Below, one piece after another: positions 405 to 26,122 of a stretch of 64,000 nucleotides of DNA. Origin of the DNA: Candidatus Doudnabacteria bacterium (GTDB taxonomy: Bacteria > Patescibacteriota > Doudnabacteria > UBA920); contig JACRDK010000025.1 of the NCBI GenBank assembly GCA_016218585.1, positions 27,637 to 91,636 on the forward strand, in the 5' to 3' direction. Under the pieces are notes generated by a model. The model was not told the DNA's origin. It did not search any database and saw only the letters and a list, made by a program, of their open reading frames with translations. Positions within the stretch are counted from its first letter, which is position 1, and every line of letters begins with the position of its first letter. The position numbers were made by a program, and so were the translations under genes.

Positions 405-480
405 TGGTGGACCCTACCGGATTTGAACCGGTCGCCTCTTCCATGCCATGGAAGCGCTCTACCAAATGAGCTAAGGGCCC
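405..480 (-). tRNA. tRNA-Ala (anticodon GGC)
   Basis: Cloverleaf with the G3:U70 Ala identity pair, anticodon loop ATGGCAT, T-loop TTCAAAT, and CCA encoded. A terminator hairpin lies at 371-399. Confidence 0.85.
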
Positions 481-486
481 AAAATA
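454..486. repeat. 33-nt direct repeat, copy 1. Covers the tRNA-Ala 5' half plus 6 nt of leader.
   Basis: gcgctctaccaaatgagctaagggcccaaaata is identical to 765-797. Confidence 0.9.
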
Positions 487-731
487 ATTTGCTCTTGCAC
501 TATTTTCTTAATAATTTCTTTGTTTTTATAATTTTTTAGCCTCAATTCTGTCTGCACCGCTTCTTCTCTTGATGAATACTGTTGTTTAAAAACTAGCCTC
601 CAAGGAATTCCATATTTAATGGATTTTGTCTTTCCTGAATTATGCTCAATAACTCTGTTTTCAGGATAGGCTGAAGACCCTATATAAAACCTACCATTTT
701 CATTTTGCAATATATAAACCCAGCAAATCAT
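471..731 (-). CDS. Small GIY-YIG nuclease domain protein (YhbQ/UPF0213-like). Start taken at the internal Met (MICWVYILQ...). The C-terminus overlaps the tRNA-Ala 5' end.
   Basis: Motif GRFYIGSSAYPENRVIEHNSG is the canonical GIY-YIG signature. The ~87-aa size is typical of the family. Confidence 0.75.
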   Translation of the reverse strand: MICWVYILQNENGRFYIGSSAYPENRVIEHNSGKTKSIKYGIPWRLVFKQQYSSREEAVQTELRLKNYKNKEIIKKIVQEQIILGP

Positions 732-764
732 ATAGTTCCTGTCGCCTCCCCGATGTACATCGGG

Positions 765-797
765 GCGCTCTACCAAATGAGCTAAGGGCCCAAAATA
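765..797. repeat. 33-nt direct repeat, copy 2. An orphan tRNA-Ala 5' half followed by the hairpin ccccgatgtacatcgggg, located upstream of the GIY-YIG gene.
   Basis: Exact 33/33 match to 454-486. The copies diverge immediately outside the repeat. Confidence 0.9.
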
Positions 798-18520: not shown

Positions 18521-19516
18521 ATGGAACAGTCTTTTGAACAAGCTAAAAATCTAATTGATAATTCAGCCAACATATTGCTCACCATGCACGAACGCATGGA
18601 CGGGGACGATGGCGGCGCGCTTTTGGCTATGGGCCACCAATTAGAGAGCTTGAATAAAAATGTAACTTATTCAATTAAAAAAGGAGTCCCTCCAAATTTA
18701 TCTTTTTTGCCGAAAAGCCATAAAATTTTAGATGACATAAGCGAACAAGACAACTTCGACTTATTAATAACCTTTGGCTGCTCAAGCATTGAAAGAACTG
18801 GCTCAGAAAAAATTACCAACCTGCAATCGCCTAAGCCTTCAGCTTATGGCGGGCAGGAAAATTTAAAAATTAAGGTTATAAATATTGACCACCATCCGGA
18901 CAATACCGGCTTTGGGCAGGTTAATTTGGTTGACGCGGCTAAATCTTCGGTAGCGGAATTAGTTTACGATTTTTTCATTTTTCACAATTGGGAAATTAAC
19001 AAAGATATTGCCACCTGCCTGCTAACGGGAATAATTACCGATACTGGATCTTTTATGCATGCCAACACGCAGAGCTCCACCTTAAAAGCCGCGGCCGAAC
19101 TTATGCGCAAAGGCGCGCAGGTTAGCAAAATAGTCAGGCAAACTTACAAAAATAAATCGCCGCAAATCCTCAAAGCCTGGGGCAGGGCTTTAAAGAATGC
19201 CTATTATGATTCCAAAAATAAAATAATTTATTCAGTAATGACGGAAAATGACTTAGCGGAATTTTCCGCCCTGCCCCAGGCCGCTTTTGAAGGGTTTGTG
19301 GAAACTTTAAACACAGTCCCTGAAGCTAAGTTCGCCATGTTCTTAAGGCAAGACGGGAATATAATTAAAGGAAGCCTGCGCAGCGACACTTTTAAAAATA
19401 CCGATGTATCCCAAATCGCCCGTATTTTTGGCGGCGGCGGACACAAATTAGCCTCCGGCTTCTCCGTTGCCGGAAAGCTTATGAAAGACGAAATGGGGAA
19501 GTGGAAAGTGGCGTAA
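18521..19516 (+). CDS. nrnA: DHH/DHHA1 phosphoesterase, NrnA-like (bifunctional oligoribonuclease/pAp phosphatase)
   Basis: DHH motifs HERMDGDDGGA and NIDHHPDN, and the DHHA1 motif GGGGH. Confidence 0.75.
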   Translation: MEQSFEQAKNLIDNSANILLTMHERMDGDDGGALLAMGHQLESLNKNVTYSIKKGVPPNLSFLPKSHKILDDISEQDNFDLLITFGCSSIERTGSEKITNLQSPKPSAYGGQENLKIKVINIDHHPDNTGFGQVNLVDAAKSSVAELVYDFFIFHNWEINKDIATCLLTGIITDTGSFMHANTQSSTLKAAAELMRKGAQVSKIVRQTYKNKSPQILKAWGRALKNAYYDSKNKIIYSVMTENDLAEFSALPQAAFEGFVETLNTVPEAKFAMFLRQDGNIIKGSLRSDTFKNTDVSQIARIFGGGGHKLASGFSVAGKLMKDEMGKWKVA

Positions 19517-19554
19517 AATCACAGACGCGCAAATTAATCCAGATTACACAGATT

Positions 19555-19588
19555 AAAAAACCATCGCCTTAGGGCGATGGTTTTTTAT
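19555..19588. terminator. Bidirectional terminator
   Basis: aaaaaaccatcgccttagggcgatggtttttt. Confidence 0.75.
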
Positions 19589-19593
19589 CCGCG

Positions 19594-20178
19594 TTATTTG
19601 TCAGTATCCGCGTATTTGCGATTTTTTAAAGTTTCCGCCCACCAGGTAAGGCTGCCAAGCAAACCTTCAATTTTTTTGTCCAAAGCAGGTTCCAGCAACT
19701 GACCTTCGTCATTAAAATACTTTTCCACCGGGCCAATCATAATTGTTTCCCTCATTGCTACGGCGGCAAAATTTTCTATAATTGTTCTAAGCTGTTCAAT
19801 AACCCGAGCGCCGGAAACCGTGCCGTTGGAAACCCCAACTAAACCAAACGGTTTTCTTTCAAACTCTGTATACAGCCAGTCCAGCGCGTTTTTTAAAACC
19901 GCCGGGTATCCGTGATTGTATTCCGGGGTAACAATTATAAAAGCGTCTGCGGCCCGGGCAATATTGCTCCACTTTTGAGCGTTCTCATTTGGATAACCTT
20001 TTTTATAATAAACCACGGGAACTGTTGGCCCGTTATAAAACGGCAAAGACAATTCTTTAAAATCAACTAAGATTGATTCATGTCCGGCTGCCCTAACTTT
20101 TTGGTGAATATATTTTGCCGCAGCCTCGCTCTTCCTGCCCTCGCGTACGCTGCCTAAAATTATTGGGATGTTAAGCAT
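19594..20178 (-). CDS. NAD(P)H-dependent FMN reductase family flavoprotein (flavodoxin-like fold)
   Basis: LNIPIILGSVREGRKS...FIIVTPEYNHGYPAVLKNALDW is typical of the FMN_red family. Start taken at the internal Met. Confidence 0.65.
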   Translation of the reverse strand: MLNIPIILGSVREGRKSEAAAKYIHQKVRAAGHESILVDFKELSLPFYNGPTVPVVYYKKGYPNENAQKWSNIARAADAFIIVTPEYNHGYPAVLKNALDWLYTEFERKPFGLVGVSNGTVSGARVIEQLRTIIENFAAVAMRETIMIGPVEKYFNDEGQLLEPALDKKIEGLLGSLTWWAETLKNRKYADTDK

Positions 20179-20251
20179 TTTATTTTTTCCTTTCCACAAA
20201 CTAATTATAGCCCAAAATTAAAAAAACGTCCTATAAATTAGAACGGTTTTT

Positions 20252-20335
20252 TGGTGCCCGAGGAGGGACTCGAACCCTCAAGCCAAAGGCATACGCACCT
20301 CAAGCGTACGTGTATACCAATTCCACCACCCGGGC
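20252..20335 (-). tRNA. tRNA-Leu (anticodon GAG), with a long variable arm
   Basis: Acceptor GCCCGGG/CTCGGGC, anticodon loop TTGAGGT, long extra arm, T-loop TTCGAGT, and CCA encoded. Confidence 0.8.
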
Positions 20336-20340
20336 GCGTT

Positions 20341-20991
20341 TTAGCTTTTTTTATCTTTAACTAAGATATTATACGCTTTTTTATATTTTCTTTCAAGCCT
20401 TGGAACAGTGTGGTTATAATACATCTTGTTAATTAGCAATCTGGAATCGTTCTTTGCAAAAACCAACTTATATGCGCCAGCATATGCCTGTTTGCTCAAA
20501 CTGCCTTTTATCTCAATGAATCCCTTAATTTTTTTCCTTAACCAGGATAAATGGTTAAAGCTCGCGGAAGCAAAATTAATATAGAATGCGAAACTATTTT
20601 TCCATCTTTCGTCATAATAAGAATAAACTGTCCCATCTCCATCAAAAGAACCTCGTAAAAAGTCAAAAAAATAAATATCTGGGACTTTTATAACGCCAAT
20701 GGTTTTTGACTTGTTCGGAGTCAACCCTAAACTAAGAAGAAAATTATAGAAATTTACATCGCCAAACTGAACCCAATAAGAAAAACTTCCACCGACAAAG
20801 CCACTCTTTTTCTTTAGGATTTTAACCTCTAAACCTAAACACTTCATGAAAACCTTAATTAACTGCAAATCTTTCGATATAAAAGCCATATGTCTTTTGT
20901 CATTATATAAGCAACCATCAGTTGCAATCAGACCAATGGCATAAGCCAATTCTGGTGACCATATTGTAGAAATTTTCTTCTGTGGTTTCAT
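20341..20991 (-). CDS. Free-standing double-motif LAGLIDADG homing endonuclease family protein
   Basis: Two motifs, LAYAIGLIATDGCL and FLRGSFDGDGTV, spaced ~100 aa apart. The stop codon lies 5 nt upstream of the tRNA-Leu 5' end on the same strand. Confidence 0.8.
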   Translation of the reverse strand: MKPQKKISTIWSPELAYAIGLIATDGCLYNDKRHMAFISKDLQLIKVFMKCLGLEVKILKKKSGFVGGSFSYWVQFGDVNFYNFLLSLGLTPNKSKTIGVIKVPDIYFFDFLRGSFDGDGTVYSYYDERWKNSFAFYINFASASFNHLSWLRKKIKGFIEIKGSLSKQAYAGAYKLVFAKNDSRLLINKMYYNHTVPRLERKYKKAYNILVKDKKS

Positions 20992-21156
20992 ATCTCAAAG
21001 CTAAAGCGTATACCAATATTATATCATATAAATTATTAATATTCCTCTTGATTAAAACCGCTCCTAGGTGTATGATTGCGACAATCAAAAGGAGGCTCGA
21101 TAAGCTGTAAAAGCATACTCGGACCTTCTTTTTACTTTCACGTGAAAGAGGAAAAT

Positions 21157-21963
21157 ATGACCAGAGAAGATGCGCGGTCGCGTATTATTGTTGCACTCGA
21201 CGTCAACAGTGTCGAGAAAGCCATTGAGCTCGTGTCCAAACTGAAAGGTAAGGTCGGCGGGTTCAAAATCGGTTTCGAATTCATCTACTCAATGTTCGCC
21301 ACGTTGGTAACATCGTCGGCGGAAGTCGCCCACCAGACCCTCGACCAGCTTCGCGAACTATTTGCCAATCTTGATCACCAGGAATTTCTGGACGGGAAGA
21401 TTGCAGATATTGGCAACACAGTCGCCGGCGCCTGCAAAGCAATTTGTCGGCTACAGCCGCTGATGTTCAATGTTCACGCTTTCGCTGGAGAACCCGCCAT
21501 GAAAGCGGCACGTAAAGCCGTGGACGAAATGTCGACCACACTCGAACTTGAACGCAAGCCGTTACTCTTAGCAGTCACCGTTCTCACTAGCCTCGGAGAG
21601 GAACACTTGATACAACTCAGTCTCAAAACCGAGGAAGACAAGGCTCCTCGCCGCCTTGAACTAGTTATCAAATACGCCATGCTGGCTCAAGCCTGTGGCT
21701 GCGACGGCGTTATTGCTTCACCTTTGGAGGTCTCAGCTATCCGCACAGCCTGCGGGCCGAACTTCCTCATCTTCACACCCGGCGTGCGTCTGCCCGGCTC
21801 AAGCAAAGGGGATCAAGTGGCAGTCAGCACCCCAGGAAATTCCATCCTCGACGGCGCCACTGGCGTTGTGGTGGGTCGCGACATTACTGGGGCTGAAGAC
21901 GTGGTCGAAGCCGCCGAACGTGTAATCGACAACATCCTCACGACCGTCAACGAACAGATTTAG
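21157..21963 (+). CDS. pyrF: Orotidine 5'-phosphate decarboxylase
   Basis: IIVALDV...KIGFE...DGKIADIGNTVAGA active-site pattern (D-x-K-x-x-D). RBS GAGGAAAAT. High-GC codon usage. Confidence 0.8.
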   Translation: MTREDARSRIIVALDVNSVEKAIELVSKLKGKVGGFKIGFEFIYSMFATLVTSSAEVAHQTLDQLRELFANLDHQEFLDGKIADIGNTVAGACKAICRLQPLMFNVHAFAGEPAMKAARKAVDEMSTTLELERKPLLLAVTVLTSLGEEHLIQLSLKTEEDKAPRRLELVIKYAMLAQACGCDGVIASPLEVSAIRTACGPNFLIFTPGVRLPGSSKGDQVAVSTPGNSILDGATGVVVGRDITGAEDVVEAAERVIDNILTTVNEQI

Positions 21964-21976
21964 AAGGAGAGCTAGA

Positions 21977-22672
21977 ATGACCGACGACCAAGTCTTTCGC
22001 GCGCTTCAAAATTGCGGCGCGGTCAACATCAAAAGCCATTTTTGTCTGACCCCCAAAGAGATTCCACCGGGATCAGGCATTAAACGGCACTTTCACTCTG
22101 ACACCTTCATCGCCAAAGACAGGGTGTTTGAATATGCCAGAGAGCTCTACTGTCTTGCCCAGGAAATTGCCGACCGGCATCTGATGCAGACTCAAAACCG
22201 CCCCTGCGACTTTGTGCTGGGTTTAGAAAAAGGGGCTATTGCCCTTGCAAACCTGGTATGTCACCATCTGCAAATATCCGGACACGACCATGTTCGCGCT
22301 GGTTACGCTGAAGCCAAACCCGGCGGCGGTTTTACCATCGGCCGAGGCTTCGCCCGCAACTACACCGGACGCACGGTTCTAATAGTTGAAGATATCGTGG
22401 TTTCCGGCACTTCTGTAAGAGACGCCATGGAAGCGGTTCGCGAAAACGCTGGCATACCCTTTGGCATCTGGGCAATCTGCTTGCGAGGCGACGCGGACAC
22501 CGGTGGTGTCCCGCTCAACTACCTTTGCAAGGTCGACGGCGCTCAAATGTGGGCGGAAGAGGAATGTCCTCTTTGCGCTGACCCCAAGTGGGGGCCGACA
22601 TCGGTCCGCACGGACATCAACAAGCACGGGCCGGAATTCTTCAAGCGGATGAACCTGCCTATTCCACTGTAA
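21977..22672 (+). CDS. pyrE: Phosphoribosyltransferase, probable orotate PRTase
   Basis: Type I PRTase PRPP-binding motif VLIVEDIVVSGTSVRDAMEAV. Its position between pyrF and other pyr genes supports the call. RBS GAAGGAG. Confidence 0.6.
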   Translation: MTDDQVFRALQNCGAVNIKSHFCLTPKEIPPGSGIKRHFHSDTFIAKDRVFEYARELYCLAQEIADRHLMQTQNRPCDFVLGLEKGAIALANLVCHHLQISGHDHVRAGYAEAKPGGGFTIGRGFARNYTGRTVLIVEDIVVSGTSVRDAMEAVRENAGIPFGIWAICLRGDADTGGVPLNYLCKVDGAQMWAEEECPLCADPKWGPTSVRTDINKHGPEFFKRMNLPIPL

Positions 22673-22705
22673 CGCTGGGTCCATATTTACAGCAACCATC
22701 CAAAA

Positions 22706-22751
22706 GCGCCGCGATCCCAACCGGGTTGCGCGGCGCTTTTTCAATTAAAAA
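22706..22751 (+). terminator. GC-rich terminator, copy 1 of a ~45-bp repeat
   Basis: cgccgcg...atcccaaccgggttgcgcggcg followed by ctttttcaattaaaaa. Nearly identical to 25233-25279. Confidence 0.75.
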
Positions 22752-22819
22752 CACAAACGACCTGTCCAAAATCTTTCGATTCCAAACAGGTCGTTTTAAA
22801 GTTGCAAGTGCAAGGGAGA

Positions 22820-23779
22820 TTACTTGTAAACTTCCAAAGCGTGGCGGATAATGCCGCGAACCCGCCATGGACGAAGCATTGCAACGCTGCCAATGCAAAC
22901 TGCGTCGGCTCCGGCTTCTTTTAGAACATCCACCGCGGTGGCGTTGAGAATTCCGCCGCCTGCCGCAATTGGTTTTTCCAAACCCGCATCTCGCGCCGCC
23001 TTCACCCAGTCAGCAGTCAGAGGCAACAATGGCCAGCCGGAGAGCCCGCCGCCGCCGAATTTCTTTAGCGGCGACTCCTTGGTCCCAAACAGTTCCTGCC
23101 AATCAATTTTCTCCGGCAACTTCCCCCACGGCACTGTATTGGAAACACAGACCGCCGAAAGACAAGGATGCCGCGAGATTGCCACCGCTGTTTCCGGCTC
23201 GGTGGTTACTGAATACTTGTCGACAATGGGCACACCCAACATCGACAGAACACCCAAGTGCCGCCACGATTCGTCAATGAATTCGTCTGGTGAAATTTTC
23301 TCGAGCCCGACATTCGGACAGGAAGCGTTGCGCTGAATGGCGATGTTGGCTTTAAACTCAGACAGGCGCGGCTTCAAAACATCCACAAACTCCTTTGTCT
23401 CCGCCAAACGTTCGCCCGCCGTTGCTGCCACCGACATAAACGAAATCATAAACGGTTCTCTGCGCGCTTGCCACTTGCCGGTATCAAGCAAAGCCTTTAA
23501 ACCGTGCCCGCTCAAACCAACCGCGTTAAGCGCAACGCCGGCGAAAGGCTTAACCACAATACATTTGGGTTTCAGCTCAGCCGGAGTCGTGCCGTCTTTT
23601 TTCAGTGGCATGTTGCCAACGCGCGGGGCAACTGTCGTGGTCTTGGCCACAAAAGTAATCCCCGAAAAATCCAAGCCAAAAGGTTTACAGAACTTATGGA
23701 AAGGGTAGCCCTCACCAAAAAAATTCTGTATGCCCGATTGACCCCAAACGGAGCCAAAATCAACACCTCGCAATTTCAT
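22820..23779 (-). CDS. pyrD: Dihydroorotate dehydrogenase family protein (TIM-barrel flavoenzyme)
   Basis: Motifs NAVGLSGHG, NASCPNVG and GGGGLSG...AAGGGI match the DHOD/DHPD family. The antisense ORFs on the plus strand are composition artefacts. Confidence 0.65.
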   Translation of the reverse strand: MKLRGVDFGSVWGQSGIQNFFGEGYPFHKFCKPFGLDFSGITFVAKTTTVAPRVGNMPLKKDGTTPAELKPKCIVVKPFAGVALNAVGLSGHGLKALLDTGKWQARREPFMISFMSVAATAGERLAETKEFVDVLKPRLSEFKANIAIQRNASCPNVGLEKISPDEFIDESWRHLGVLSMLGVPIVDKYSVTTEPETAVAISRHPCLSAVCVSNTVPWGKLPEKIDWQELFGTKESPLKKFGGGGLSGWPLLPLTADWVKAARDAGLEKPIAAGGGILNATAVDVLKEAGADAVCIGSVAMLRPWRVRGIIRHALEVYK

Positions 23780-23913
23780 AAGGCCTCCTTCAGGTCTTCA
23801 AATAGCCAAATCATAATACAGAACTATGTGAAATAGGTCAAAATAAATGCTTGTCTTTTTTTAGACTTTCTGTAATACTCCTGTAAGAAATCGCAAGCCC
23901 TTAAGGAGGCACA

Positions 23914-25215
23914 ATGACCGGAGTAAAGAATATCTTGATTAACGGAGAAGAGCCCGGGGCCATCGTTTTTGATGGCAAGTTGATCCACGCTGTTTACAAG
24001 CCGGGAGACACCTTACCGCCCGATGTGGACTGGATTGACGGACACGGCTGCGAGGCCTATCCTGCCGGCGTAGATATGCATGTCCACGACAGGTGGGGCG
24101 AACCCAAACGTGAAGATCCGCAACACTTGGAAGCGGCTTGCATCGCGGGTGGCACGGCGACTATCGTTACCATGCCAAACACAATACCGCCTTTTGACCA
24201 AGCAAATCAAACCAGAACAAGACTTGCGGGGTTTAATTCCATCAATGTCCTGGCTTGGATAGCAGCCACGCGAACCAACTACACAGAACGGGAGATGGCC
24301 TATCATTATTTTTCGCGTCAAATTCCTGGTGCGAAACTGATGATGGCTTCTACCAACAACCCAGAAACCCTGGTAGACGACGGCCTGTCACAACGTCGTA
24401 TCCTGGAAGAGAATGCTGACCTCGATTGCATTACAACGATTCACGCTGAGGCTGAAGACCTAATCAAGAGGAATGTACAAGAATATAAGCAGCTGTACGG
24501 CCGGCTGCTTCGCCAACACCACTGCAAAATCCGTGAAAGCCAAGTTGAGGTTGAAGGCATCCGCCGCATCCTCAACATTCATCACGATGTTGGAGCCGGG
24601 CGCATTCACATAGCGCATGTGTCTACCGCAGACGGCATAAAGCTAATTCTAAGAGCCAAGTCCCGGGGACAGAACGTGACATTTGAAACCTGCCCCCACT
24701 ACTGGACATTCAACAATTTCTGGGTAGAGGCGGGTAACGGCGGGTTCTACAAAATGAATCCCGCCCTCAGGTCACCGGAAGAGCAGTTGATTGTCTTGCA
24801 ACACTTGTGCAACGGTGATGTCGATGTTTCTGCCACCGATCATGCCCCTCACCCTCGCGAAGCCAAGACAAATCCAGGCCTCGACGAATGCTCCAGCGGG
24901 GTTCCTGGAGTGGAGACGAATATCCCGTTGTTGTATGACCTGAAAACTCGTCGGATGATCTCCACCAAGAGGTTCATCGACCTGACCTCAAGAAACGCGG
25001 CAAAAATCCTGGGACTCAACAAAGGGTCGCTGGCGGCCGGGTTTGATGCCGACATGATTCTCATCGACCCATTCGCAAAATTCAAGATTGATGATTCTGG
25101 CGTCAAAAGCAAATGCGGTTGGACCCCGTACGCCGGAATGACCGTCAACAAAATTGTTTTCGTCGTAATTAGCGGCCAAGTGGTCGCACAAAATTTCGTC
25201 GAACAACAAACATGA
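23914..25215 (+). CDS. pyrC: Cyclic amidohydrolase, dihydroorotase-like
   Basis: Metal-binding motifs DMHVHDR and TDHAPH. ~430-aa type I dihydroorotase/allantoinase family. RBS AAGGAGG. Confidence 0.65.
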   Translation: MTGVKNILINGEEPGAIVFDGKLIHAVYKPGDTLPPDVDWIDGHGCEAYPAGVDMHVHDRWGEPKREDPQHLEAACIAGGTATIVTMPNTIPPFDQANQTRTRLAGFNSINVLAWIAATRTNYTEREMAYHYFSRQIPGAKLMMASTNNPETLVDDGLSQRRILEENADLDCITTIHAEAEDLIKRNVQEYKQLYGRLLRQHHCKIRESQVEVEGIRRILNIHHDVGAGRIHIAHVSTADGIKLILRAKSRGQNVTFETCPHYWTFNNFWVEAGNGGFYKMNPALRSPEEQLIVLQHLCNGDVDVSATDHAPHPREAKTNPGLDECSSGVPGVETNIPLLYDLKTRRMISTKRFIDLTSRNAAKILGLNKGSLAAGFDADMILIDPFAKFKIDDSGVKSKCGWTPYAGMTVNKIVFVVISGQVVAQNFVEQQT

Positions 25216-25367: not shown

Positions 25368-25685
25368 ATGTCTACTAAATTCATTCGCAAAATTGAAGAC
25401 TTTAAATGCGGGCATTGCGGCAAAAAAACCAAAGGCAATGGTTATACAAACCACTGCCCAAAATGCCTTTGGAGCAAACACCTAGACAATTACCCGGGGG
25501 ACAGAGCTAACCCCTGCGGCGGACTTATGGAGCCTGTTGGTTTGGAACTGGAAAAAGGGGTATATCACATTATCCATCAATGCGAGACCTGCGGCGCCCG
25601 CGCCCGCTGCAAAAGTTCGCAGGAAGACAGCATTGAAGCCCTAACCGCGCTATCTGAGAGCCTTGCCAAAAAGCTAATGTTTTGA
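25368..25685 (+). CDS. RNHCP-domain zinc-ribbon protein (105 aa)
   Basis: GYTNHCPKCLWSKH plus CGHCG and CETCG cysteine pairs match the RNHCP domain signature. Confidence 0.6.
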   Translation: MSTKFIRKIEDFKCGHCGKKTKGNGYTNHCPKCLWSKHLDNYPGDRANPCGGLMEPVGLELEKGVYHIIHQCETCGARARCKSSQEDSIEALTALSESLAKKLMF

Positions 25686-25715: not shown

Positions 25716-25790
25716 GGGCAATTAGCTCAGTGGTAGAGCGACTCGTTTACACCGAGTAGGCCGTAGGTTCAATCCCTACATTGCCCACCA
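25716..25790 (+). tRNA. tRNA-Val (anticodon TAC)
   Basis: Cloverleaf with anticodon loop TTTACAC, T-loop TTCAATC, and CCA encoded. Confidence 0.85.
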
Positions 25791-25811
25791 CGTAGTTCGC
25801 GAACGACGTGG
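25788..25811. repeat. GC-rich palindromic element ccacgtagttcgcgaacgacgtgg, overlapping the CCA end of tRNA-Val
   Basis: Shares the CCACGT-N-TCGCGA-N-ACGTGG design with 17982-18007. Confidence 0.7.
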
Positions 25812-25915
25812 CCCACCAGGTATAATTAGTTTATCAAGTTAAAAGTTATCAAGTTTATGAAGTTTGGTTGTAGGAACTTTATAACCTTTACCTTTACGAA
25901 CTTTATTACTTCCGT

Positions 25916-25990
25916 GCCGGGCTAGCTCATCGGTAGAGCGCTGCCCTGAAGAGGCAGGCGTGCCCAGTTCGACTCTGGGGCCCGGCACCA
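25916..25990 (+). tRNA. tRNA-Phe (anticodon GAA)
   Basis: Anticodon loop CTGAAGA, T-loop TTCGACT, and CCA encoded. Confidence 0.85.
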
Positions 25991-26048
25991 TAAATATACT
26001 TGCCAAAGAGTATAAAAAATTGATAGAATAGTATTTGAAAATTAGTTC

Positions 26049-26122
26049 GCGGCTATGGTTCAATGGTAGAACTTCTCCTTGCCATGGAGAGGATAGGGGT
26101 TCGATTCCCCTTAGCCGCTCCA
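26049..26122 (+). tRNA. tRNA-Gly (anticodon GCC)
   Basis: Anticodon loop TTGCCAT, T-loop TTCGATT, discriminator U, and CCA encoded. Confidence 0.85.

Follow-up and report, generated by a model that had tools for sequence, protein, structure and literature searches.

The described systems that come closest to the arrangement considered here, a LAGLIDADG endonuclease gene abutting tRNA-Leu(GAG) in a 64,000-nucleotide (nt) stretch (hereafter the window) of a Candidatus Doudnabacteria genome from the Candidate Phyla Radiation (CPR, or Patescibacteria), come from phages, fungal mitochondria, CPR bacteria themselves and bacterial introns. SegB of the T-even phages is a free-standing GIY-YIG enzyme that is encoded in a tRNA cluster, cuts inside tRNA genes and is often found beside them (PMC13096335; Brok-Volchanskaya et al., 2008, cited there). 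In fungal mitochondria, LAGLIDADG open reading frames (ORFs) are found between cob or atp6 and C-terminal duplications of the gene (PMC6279837), and CPR LAGLIDADG endonucleases have been described inside rRNA insertions, in an account that does not mention tRNA (PMC11270868). Bacterial group I introns, lastly, invade tRNA genes among others (PMC3984707). No description of a cassette joining a LAGLIDADG gene to tRNA-Leu was found in the searchable literature, the coverage of which is incomplete, so this is absence of evidence alone. The locus in the window is probably such a cassette, namely, a free-standing (intron-less and intein-less) LAGLIDADG homing-endonuclease element dedicated to the tRNA-Leu(GAG) of CPR bacteria; the reading draws on its architecture, its conservation, its patchy occurrence, a deletion remnant in a close relative, incongruent similarities and an intact active site. 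The locus is laid out as follows.

20341-20991, minus strand: ORF of 216 amino acids encoding the LAGLIDADG protein, with ATG start and with the TAA stop codon (20341-20343) included (ORF list)
20914-20946, minus strand: LAGLIDADG motif 1, AYAIGLIATDG, residues 16-26, with the codon of catalytic Asp25 at 20917-20919
20632-20661, minus strand: LAGLIDADG motif 2, FLRGSFDGDG, residues 111-120, with the codon of catalytic Asp119 at 20635-20637
20336-20340, minus strand: spacer of 5 nt between the ORF stop codon and tRNA nucleotide 1, read from the sequence
20252-20335, minus strand: tRNA-Leu(GAG), intact, CCA encoded (ARAGORN; Rfam tRNA, 52 bits against a gathering score of 29)
20994-21017, minus strand: relic of the tRNA-Leu(GAG) 5' half, ATTGGTATACGCTTTAGCTTTGAG, about tRNA nt 14-37 plus one extra base, including a 14-mer at 21004-21017
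21018-21026, minus strand: extended -10-like box TGATATAAT abutting the relic, a sequence match and the presumed ORF promoter
20368-20396, minus strand: sigma-70-type promoter TTGAAA-17-TATAAT within the last ~20 ORF codons, an 11/12 consensus match and the presumed tRNA-Leu promoter
20227-20245, minus strand: terminator-like hairpin and then a T-run, 7 nt past the tRNA, the presumed end of the transcription unit
21033-21095, minus strand: upstream flank (pyrF leader region), collinear with the flank of the closest relative, locus L091 (local alignment score 36 against a null of 20.6 +/- 2.2)

A sequence-only reading of the window had described a free-standing LAGLIDADG endonuclease gene with two motifs that ends 5 nt ahead of tRNA-Leu(GAG) on the same strand, and this description holds throughout: the 216-residue product scores 28.4 bits on PF14528 (LAGLIDADG_3), above the curated Pfam cut-off of 22.5, both motifs were found, the spacer coordinates agree, and the ORF has a start and a stop of its own. 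An intron inside tRNA-Leu(GAG) can be rejected, as a search of 19500-21500 returned no intron RNA family (Rfam, E <= 1), the tRNA is complete and shows no break, and the entire ORF precedes its first nucleotide. An integrase-type tRNA island likewise does not fit, because the segment from the pyr genes to the flavin mononucleotide (FMN) reductase gene holds the LAGLIDADG ORF and the tRNA alone, with no room for an integrase, and because it is the 5' half of the tRNA, not its 3' end, that has been duplicated.

Set beside the described systems, the locus resembles SegB in having neither intron nor intein and in adjoining tRNA genes; SegB cuts the tRNA genes of genomes lacking it and is inherited by co-conversion, the carrier genome being presumed to be protected by sequence differences, and an analogous course may be supposed here. 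It differs from SegB in that the enzyme is of the LAGLIDADG rather than the GIY-YIG type, the host DNA is a bacterial chromosome rather than a phage, and a relic of the tRNA 5' half is present; moreover, SegB has many cut sites and no isotype preference, whereas the LAGLIDADG family here is tied to one isoacceptor. The fungal cob and atp6 cases share with the present locus a free-standing ORF at a conserved gene, a function saved by partial duplication and a partial copy across the ORF, but here the gene encodes a tRNA rather than a protein, the duplication concerns the 5' half rather than the 3' terminus, the setting is a bacterial chromosome rather than an organelle, the relic is conserved over phyla, and the presumed promoter of the target gene lies inside the ORF. 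A similar partial-duplicate case involving atp6 and a GIY-YIG gene is said to exist in Allomyces. The endonucleases of CPR rRNA insertions come from the same host group and the same superfamily and likewise have a conserved RNA gene as target; unlike these and unlike I-Tsp061I (2dch), the present ORF lies outside an intact tRNA and does not interrupt an RNA gene. The group I introns of bacterial tRNA-Leu sit in the anticodon loop, so that they too are mobile elements at tRNA-Leu with a junction at the anticodon loop, but the window has an uninterrupted tRNA without intron RNA, next to an ORF that comes with a promoter-like box of its own.

The pairing of nuclease gene and tRNA, which the sequence-only reading had called unusual, proved in a comparative survey of the locus to be no local oddity but a conserved cassette at tRNA-Leu(GAG) over many CPR phyla. 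A scan with one genome per species returned at least 556 relatives, and the best 80 loci were kept, spread over about 20 named CPR lineages that belong to the Parcubacteria and Microgenomates groups or are Peregrinibacteria or Berkelbacteria; in 79 of these 80, the ORF is followed immediately, on its own strand, by a tRNA-Leu (78 GAG, 1 AAG), the sole exception being a contig that ends 3 nt past the ORF. The distance from ORF to tRNA ranges from -48 to +34 nt across related loci. The closest homologues, which are 61-67% identical, occupy the same syntenic place in other Doudnabacteria (in the order pyrimidine genes, LAGLIDADG ORF, FMN reductase, DHH phosphoesterase, RbfA, IF-2), and in every one of these orthologous loci tRNA-Leu(GAG) starts 0-5 nt past the ORF. 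In many loci, tRNA-Val(TAC), tRNA-Phe and tRNA-Gly follow downstream of tRNA-Leu.

A sister subfamily shows the same architecture at a different isoacceptor. In locus L002, a second, more distant LAGLIDADG gene runs into tRNA-Leu(TAG), and its leader, ATTGGCAGACGC-TTTATGCT-TTAGG, carries the TAG anticodon at the same 8-nt spacing as the GAG relics described below; the encoded protein has a large set of relatives of its own. The TAG architecture was found in three further independent loci (L100, L104 and L106/L109), whose relics read GGCAAACGC-N8-TTAG and are followed by TATAAT or TAAAAT, so that all four loci have a TAG relic. With the TAG sister included, the family comprises 328 clusters (50% identity, E <= 1e-30). 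ORFs that read into the tRNA are common (L016-L084, many loci; L002, 3448-3484; L106, 2629-2666); a common overlap is 36 nt, the stop codon TGA then coinciding with U33-G34-A35 of the anticodon loop, and ORFs of the TAG subfamily can have the TAG anticodon as their stop codon. In L037 (4179-4991, minus strand), a distant LAGLIDADG paralogue begins 5 nt past the 3' end of tRNA-Leu(TAA), with a terminator-like hairpin after it; a LAGLIDADG neighbor thus exists for a third tRNA-Leu isoacceptor, but in that case the ORF is downstream of the tRNA.

Upstream of the ORF, a degenerate scrap resembling tRNA-Leu had been noted, a 14-mer aligned to the tRNA with a 6-nt deletion and placed 13 nt ahead of the ORF start. 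The 14-mer at 21004-21017 does exist, at a distance of 12 nt from the ATG, and the tRNA-Leu-derived fragment beats chance in shuffled-sequence tests, a 7+gap+7 match of the kind first noted having turned up in one dinucleotide shuffle out of 2000. A better alignment exists than that with a 6-nt deletion: tRNA nt 14-37 pair with 20994-21017 in the best local alignment, which has 24 columns and needs no gap other than one extra nucleotide in the fragment (score 21 against a null of 12.7 +/- 2.0, p = 0.003 by dinucleotide shuffles). Thus delimited, the relic takes in the D-loop together with the 3' strand of the D-stem, continues along the 5' side of the anticodon stem and through the anticodon loop (TTGAG), and ends 2 nt ahead of the ATG. 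Rather than a random scrap, it is a conserved leader with a characteristic +1-nt spacing and the same anticodon as the cognate tRNA.

The decisive support for the relic being real is comparative. The search pattern GGYANAYGY, 5-8 nt, TKAG picks up the same element ahead of the ORF, within ~100 nt and without exception in the orientation of the ORF, in ~54 of 84 related loci, and elsewhere in these 84 loci the pattern lies almost solely inside real tRNA genes (with one weak stray match, in L088); it occurs once in the 64-kb window. The relic consensus is aTTGGTAkACGCTATnACCTTGAGGTAT (short form TTGGTAKACGC-N8-TGAGG), and the spacing from ACGC to TGAG is 8 nt in 50 of 54 relics as against 7 nt in every real tRNA, so that the longer spacing is a shared derived character that argues for a common origin. 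Within single loci the relic and the downstream tRNA are unlike each other, their pairwise alignments being mostly weak, so that the relic cannot have been copied recently from the resident gene. Fresh copying from the resident tRNA in each genome is rejected by these within-locus differences together with the shared +1 spacing, and a single origin, with the relic carried along with the ORF, is favored. In L021, L023 and L044, the relic reaches back to tRNA position 1. Its anticodon tracks that of the cognate tRNA in 58/58 cases (GAG 54/54, TAG 4/4). A function as an RNA hairpin or anticodon-arm mimic is rejected family-wide (185 pairs over 50 relics against a shuffled-partner null of 183 +/- 6.4, p = 0.4); three loci alone appeared compensatory in their pairing. 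In L077 (2340-2500, Berkelbacteria), a complete tRNA-Leu(CAG) ends 3 nt ahead of the ORF ATG, and a degenerate piece starting GCCCGGGTGGTGAAAT lies just upstream of that tRNA.

The product of the ORF is predicted to be a monomeric, double-motif LAGLIDADG endonuclease with a fold like that of cleaving LAGLIDADG enzymes. An AlphaFold2 model (29 homologues; predicted local distance difference test score, pLDDT, 92.5) contains two alpha-beta-beta-alpha-beta-beta-alpha halves in the expected order, and its best fold match in the PDB is I-Tsp061I (2dch, sequence similarity 19%), followed by inteins, I-AniI, I-DmoI and I-SceI; the domesticated LAGLIDADG fold WhiA is also among the structural matches (Foldseek). 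Each motif has an Asp as its penultimate residue (D25 and D119), and both are kept in 85/85 family members; 46 columns of the family alignment (A1) are invariant, and 84 of the 85 copies are intact, the remaining one having an in-frame stop. Homologues number 1820 at E <= 1e-3, the identical protein being on record from a Candidatus Doudnabacteria metagenome-assembled genome, and NCBIfam has no model or named family for the protein. WhiA-like regulators have lost the catalytic acidic residues and have gained a C-terminal helix-turn-helix domain; the present protein does not fall into this class, as its catalytic Asp residues are invariant and no domain besides LAGLIDADG was seen in it (Pfam, AlphaFold2 model).

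The main evidence for mobility is presence/absence polymorphism among close relatives. Loci found via the ORF are biased to its presence, and unbiased sampling was carried out via the neighboring FMN-reductase gene, giving a sample of five lineages from one class (the metagenome scan with this gene led to a single locus). All five lineages keep the synteny and tRNA-Leu(GAG), and an intact LAGLIDADG ORF is found in 0/5, by which an essential gene universally fixed in CPR bacteria is rejected. L091, which is sister to the window on the host-gene tree (FMN reductase 82% and RbfA 84% identical), has the collinear upstream flank joined directly onto the last 21 ORF codons (CLEINRIKAYNALVVNKNNP and stop), with TTGAAA-17-TATAAT intact in this remnant and the tRNA after it; this state is a deletion of ~630 nt (about 20404-21032) that spared the promoter. 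In L095, the tRNA has the same orientation, with CTTGAAA-N17-TATAAT upstream and no ORF, and L090, L092-94 and L097-99 contain a bare tRNA-Leu(GAG), inverted relative to the FMN-reductase gene, with neither ORF nor relic. The homologous site is thus polymorphic (ORF present; 3' remnant, L091; bare tRNA, L090, L093 and L097), and the three allele states are interleaved on the host-gene tree, a neighbor-joining tree of few taxa. The inverted tRNA of the bare alleles shares the strand of the tRNA-Val, tRNA-Phe and tRNA-Gly genes, and this may be the ancestral orientation.

Similarities of the ORF and of its host genes are incongruent as well. In the database, the LAGLIDADG homologues are at most 67% identical, yet eight FMN-reductase clusters are 80-83% identical; between L007 and L009, the ORF is 76% identical versus 61/70% for host genes, and between L002 and L009, it is 68% identical versus 83/82%. 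The G+C content (GC) of the ORF is below that of the flanks in 77/77 loci.

The last ~60 nt of the ORF presumably contain the promoter that drives tRNA-Leu. In a consensus scan, TTGAAA-17-TATAAT at 20396-20368 (codons L-E-R-K...Y-N) matched 11/12 positions ~32 nt ahead of the tRNA, and matches of at least 10/12 occur in the last 90 nt before the tRNA in 28/83 loci versus 21/498 control windows in the same ORFs (Fisher p = 1e-13). The hexamer TTGAAA occurs in two codon registers (cTT-GAA-A and TTG-AAA), an argument that selection acts on the DNA motif in addition to the protein. The box TGATATAAT is, in turn, the presumed promoter of the endonuclease ORF; the syntenic Doudnabacteria loci L002, L003, L007 and L009 have a TGnTATAAT or TATGAT box in the corresponding place. 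The Doudnabacteria leader has TGnTATAAT just upstream of the relic and GAGG, resembling a Shine-Dalgarno sequence, ~5 nt before the ATG, and in many Parcubacteria TATAAT comes directly after the relic TTGAGG or within ~35 nt of it, 6-9 nt before the ATG. As the position of the box varies between clades, promoter use alone does not explain the conservation of the relic.

A possible target is suggested by the tRNA genes of alleles without the ORF. The ORF-less tRNA-Leu(GAG) of the L097 / L093 type reads GGTATACGCACTACCTTGAGGTGGTAG, and the bare ORF-less tRNAs, GCCCAGGTGGCGGAATTGGTATACGCACTACCTTGAGG (L097) and GCCCGGGTGGCGAAATGGCAGACGCACTACCTTGAGG (L093), are near-identical to the long relics of L021 and L023 bar the extra base; the D-arm/anticodon-stem core of the window tRNA, GGTATACAC GTACGC, is unlike both the relic and the ORF-less tRNAs. 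The strict relic core, GGYAKACGC-N7-TGAG, is present in 3/3 bare ORF-less tRNAs, in 0/2 post-deletion tRNAs, and among ORF-linked tRNAs in 0/8 from Doudnabacteria and 5/83 overall, a contrast with Fisher p = 0.005 overall and 0.035 within the class, from small and phylogenetically non-independent samples. Of the tRNAs in its cluster, tRNA-Leu(GAG) has diverged most in each of the three close pairs that were compared: between the window and L091, tRNA-Leu is 79% and tRNA-Phe 100% identical, and between the window and L007, tRNA-Leu is 77% identical versus 95, 96 and 89% for the other cluster tRNAs. This distribution of the core and this divergence of the tRNA would be expected if the enzyme recognizes the D-loop-to-anticodon stretch and genomes with the cassette hold resistant variants, and the cassette may drive fast evolution of tRNA-Leu(GAG).

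Taken as a homing element, the cassette would consist of the tRNA-Leu(GAG) 5'-half relic, from which the ORF now takes its promoter and leader; the ORF of the endonuclease, both catalytic Asp residues included; the tRNA promoter in the last ~60 nt of the ORF; and the intact tRNA-Leu(GAG). What we infer from the comparisons above is that the enzyme cleaves DNA, which site it targets, that the resident tRNA and the relic are immune, and what the relic and the promoters do. The enzyme would cut ORF-less tRNA-Leu(GAG) alleles, whose GGYAKACGC-N7-TGAGG core equals the relic consensus, and repair of the break off a cassette-bearing chromosome would copy the ORF in, with the cassette's own tRNA spared by its diverged core and the relic by its +1 spacing. 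Since the presumed tRNA promoter lies inside the ORF, deletions that remove the ORF would have to spare its 3' end. The element may persist through repeated rounds in which related genomes are invaded, lose it by deletion and are invaded again. The relic itself may date from an insertion near nt 37-38 that duplicated the tRNA 5' half. It is conceivable, if rather doubtful, that the relic is a working part of the element and not a scar, namely, an uncleavable copy of the target kept for enzyme binding, as a homology arm, or both. Binding of the relic by the enzyme could amount to autoregulation at its own promoter, and the relic and the downstream tRNA could act as homology arms that permit homing into any tRNA-Leu(GAG) via the tRNA sequence, whatever the flanking genes; a working-part relic would explain its conservation across phyla, the tracking of the cognate anticodon and the spread over very different genomic contexts. 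On this doubtful view, the tRNA promoter inside the ORF would also make a clean loss of the element costly.

Several considerations weigh against a homing cassette. The tRNA of the bare alleles lies in the opposite orientation, and these alleles are therefore not simple empty sites; the ORF-less sample is small (five lineages of one class); the contrast in core sequence is phylogenetically confounded; and the target site in the tRNA-Leu gene is a candidate, arrived at by a guess from sequence comparison. The relic, moreover, is conserved at its site to a degree far beyond what one would expect of a neutral scar, and none of the explanations tried accounts for this. The ORF tree has the shape of a star and agrees in part with taxonomy, and the GC of the ORF goes with that of host and flanks (r = 0.78), so that inheritance is to a large extent vertical, with horizontal movement perhaps limited to close relatives. 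Among the viral contigs of IMG/VR there is one distant hit, at 28% identity, by which a phage-borne element is rejected, and no vector is known.

The main rival is domestication: an ancient insertion in the CPR ancestor would have been turned into a vertically inherited host factor, maintained because it benefits the host, for example a DNA-binding regulator of the ORF-tRNA-Leu(-Val-Phe-Gly) unit acting via the tRNA-like leader. Such domestication would suit the very wide and tight linkage of ORF and tRNA over phyla, the strong conservation of the protein (46 invariant columns, 84/85 intact copies), the conserved leader of ~24 base pairs (about the size of a LAGLIDADG site), the partly taxonomic tree with ORF GC following host GC, and the presence of WhiA among the fold matches. 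It is nevertheless unlikely, given that the ORF is missing from the nearest relative and from four other syntenic lineages that retain the tRNA, that both catalytic Asp residues are invariant in a protein with no domain besides LAGLIDADG, that ORF and host similarities are incongruent, and that ORF GC lies under flank GC in every one of the 77 loci.

A second rival takes the ORF to be a fossil of an archaeal-type or group I intron at the tRNA-Leu anticodon loop, rescued by duplication of the 5' exon, now immobile and slowly decaying. The homology between relic and tRNA stops at nt 37-38, which is the canonical position of archaeal and eukaryal tRNA introns, and the closest solved relative of the protein, I-Tsp061I, is encoded in an archaeal intron. 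Against this stand the absence of any intron RNA family, the intact tRNA, the want of decay (84/85 copies intact, catalytic residues invariant) and a gain and loss of the ORF that, together with the incongruence, indicates present-day dynamics, which leaves a mere fossil quite improbable; descent from an archaeal-type tRNA intron at 37/38 is possible as a matter of origin and is compatible with a homing cassette. Chance juxtaposition of a hypothetical gene and a tRNA with a chance 14-mer, for which it could be said that one gapped 14-nt match and one gene-tRNA pair are weak if taken alone, is refuted for practical purposes by the linkage in 79/80 loci, the relic in ~54/84 and the shuffles (p = 0.003 and 1/2000).

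The homing cassette, as the preferred reading, bears on several areas. Free-standing LAGLIDADG genes on bacterial chromosomes have been little studied, and in the searchable CPR literature LAGLIDADG genes appear solely in rRNA insertions; here a large family is tied to single tRNA-Leu isoacceptors. The filled, deleted and bare alleles provide a natural series for the persistence of an endonuclease on an essential RNA gene, and the cassette illustrates how such an element can capture the promoter of its presumed target gene. Should the tRNA-Leu target of ~22 base pairs prove true, the family would offer a diverse panel of compact (~215 amino acids), monomeric meganucleases with related targets. 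For annotation, the cassette accounts for a recurrent "hypothetical protein" plus tRNA fragment in CPR genomes.

The surroundings of the locus contain further features. The pyr block at 21157-25215 (pyrF, a phosphoribosyltransferase, pyrD-like and dihydroorotase-like genes) is GC-rich, at 52.5% versus 41% in its neighbors, and the sequence-only reading had linked the endonuclease to an island boundary there; the same contrast exists in L091, which has lost the ORF, so the block is unrelated to the endonuclease. Other relatives lack the contrast, and the block was probably replaced by transfer before the split of the window and L091, independently of the endonuclease. The window's tRNA-Val(TAC), tRNA-Phe(GAA) and tRNA-Gly(GCC), which in other CPR bacteria are the usual immediate downstream neighbors of tRNA-Leu(GAG), lie at 25716-26122 on the plus strand, 5 kb from tRNA-Leu across the pyr genes. 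A gene for a small RNHCP-domain protein (25368-25685, plus strand) adjoins tRNA-Val, and in L007 and L091 it likewise has tRNA-Val as its neighbor. Lastly, the parallel that had been drawn with a GIY-YIG/tRNA-Ala pair is a real one: a 101-residue ORF at 471-776 (minus strand; PF01541, 47.7 bits) overlaps the 5' end of tRNA-Ala(GGC), at 405-480, by 10 nt. GIY-YIG genes ahead of tRNAs may represent a second nuclease-before-tRNA pattern in CPR bacteria; in L106-L108, an 83-residue GIY-YIG ORF (L106, 2729-3037) overlaps the 5' end of tRNA-Cys by 18 nt.

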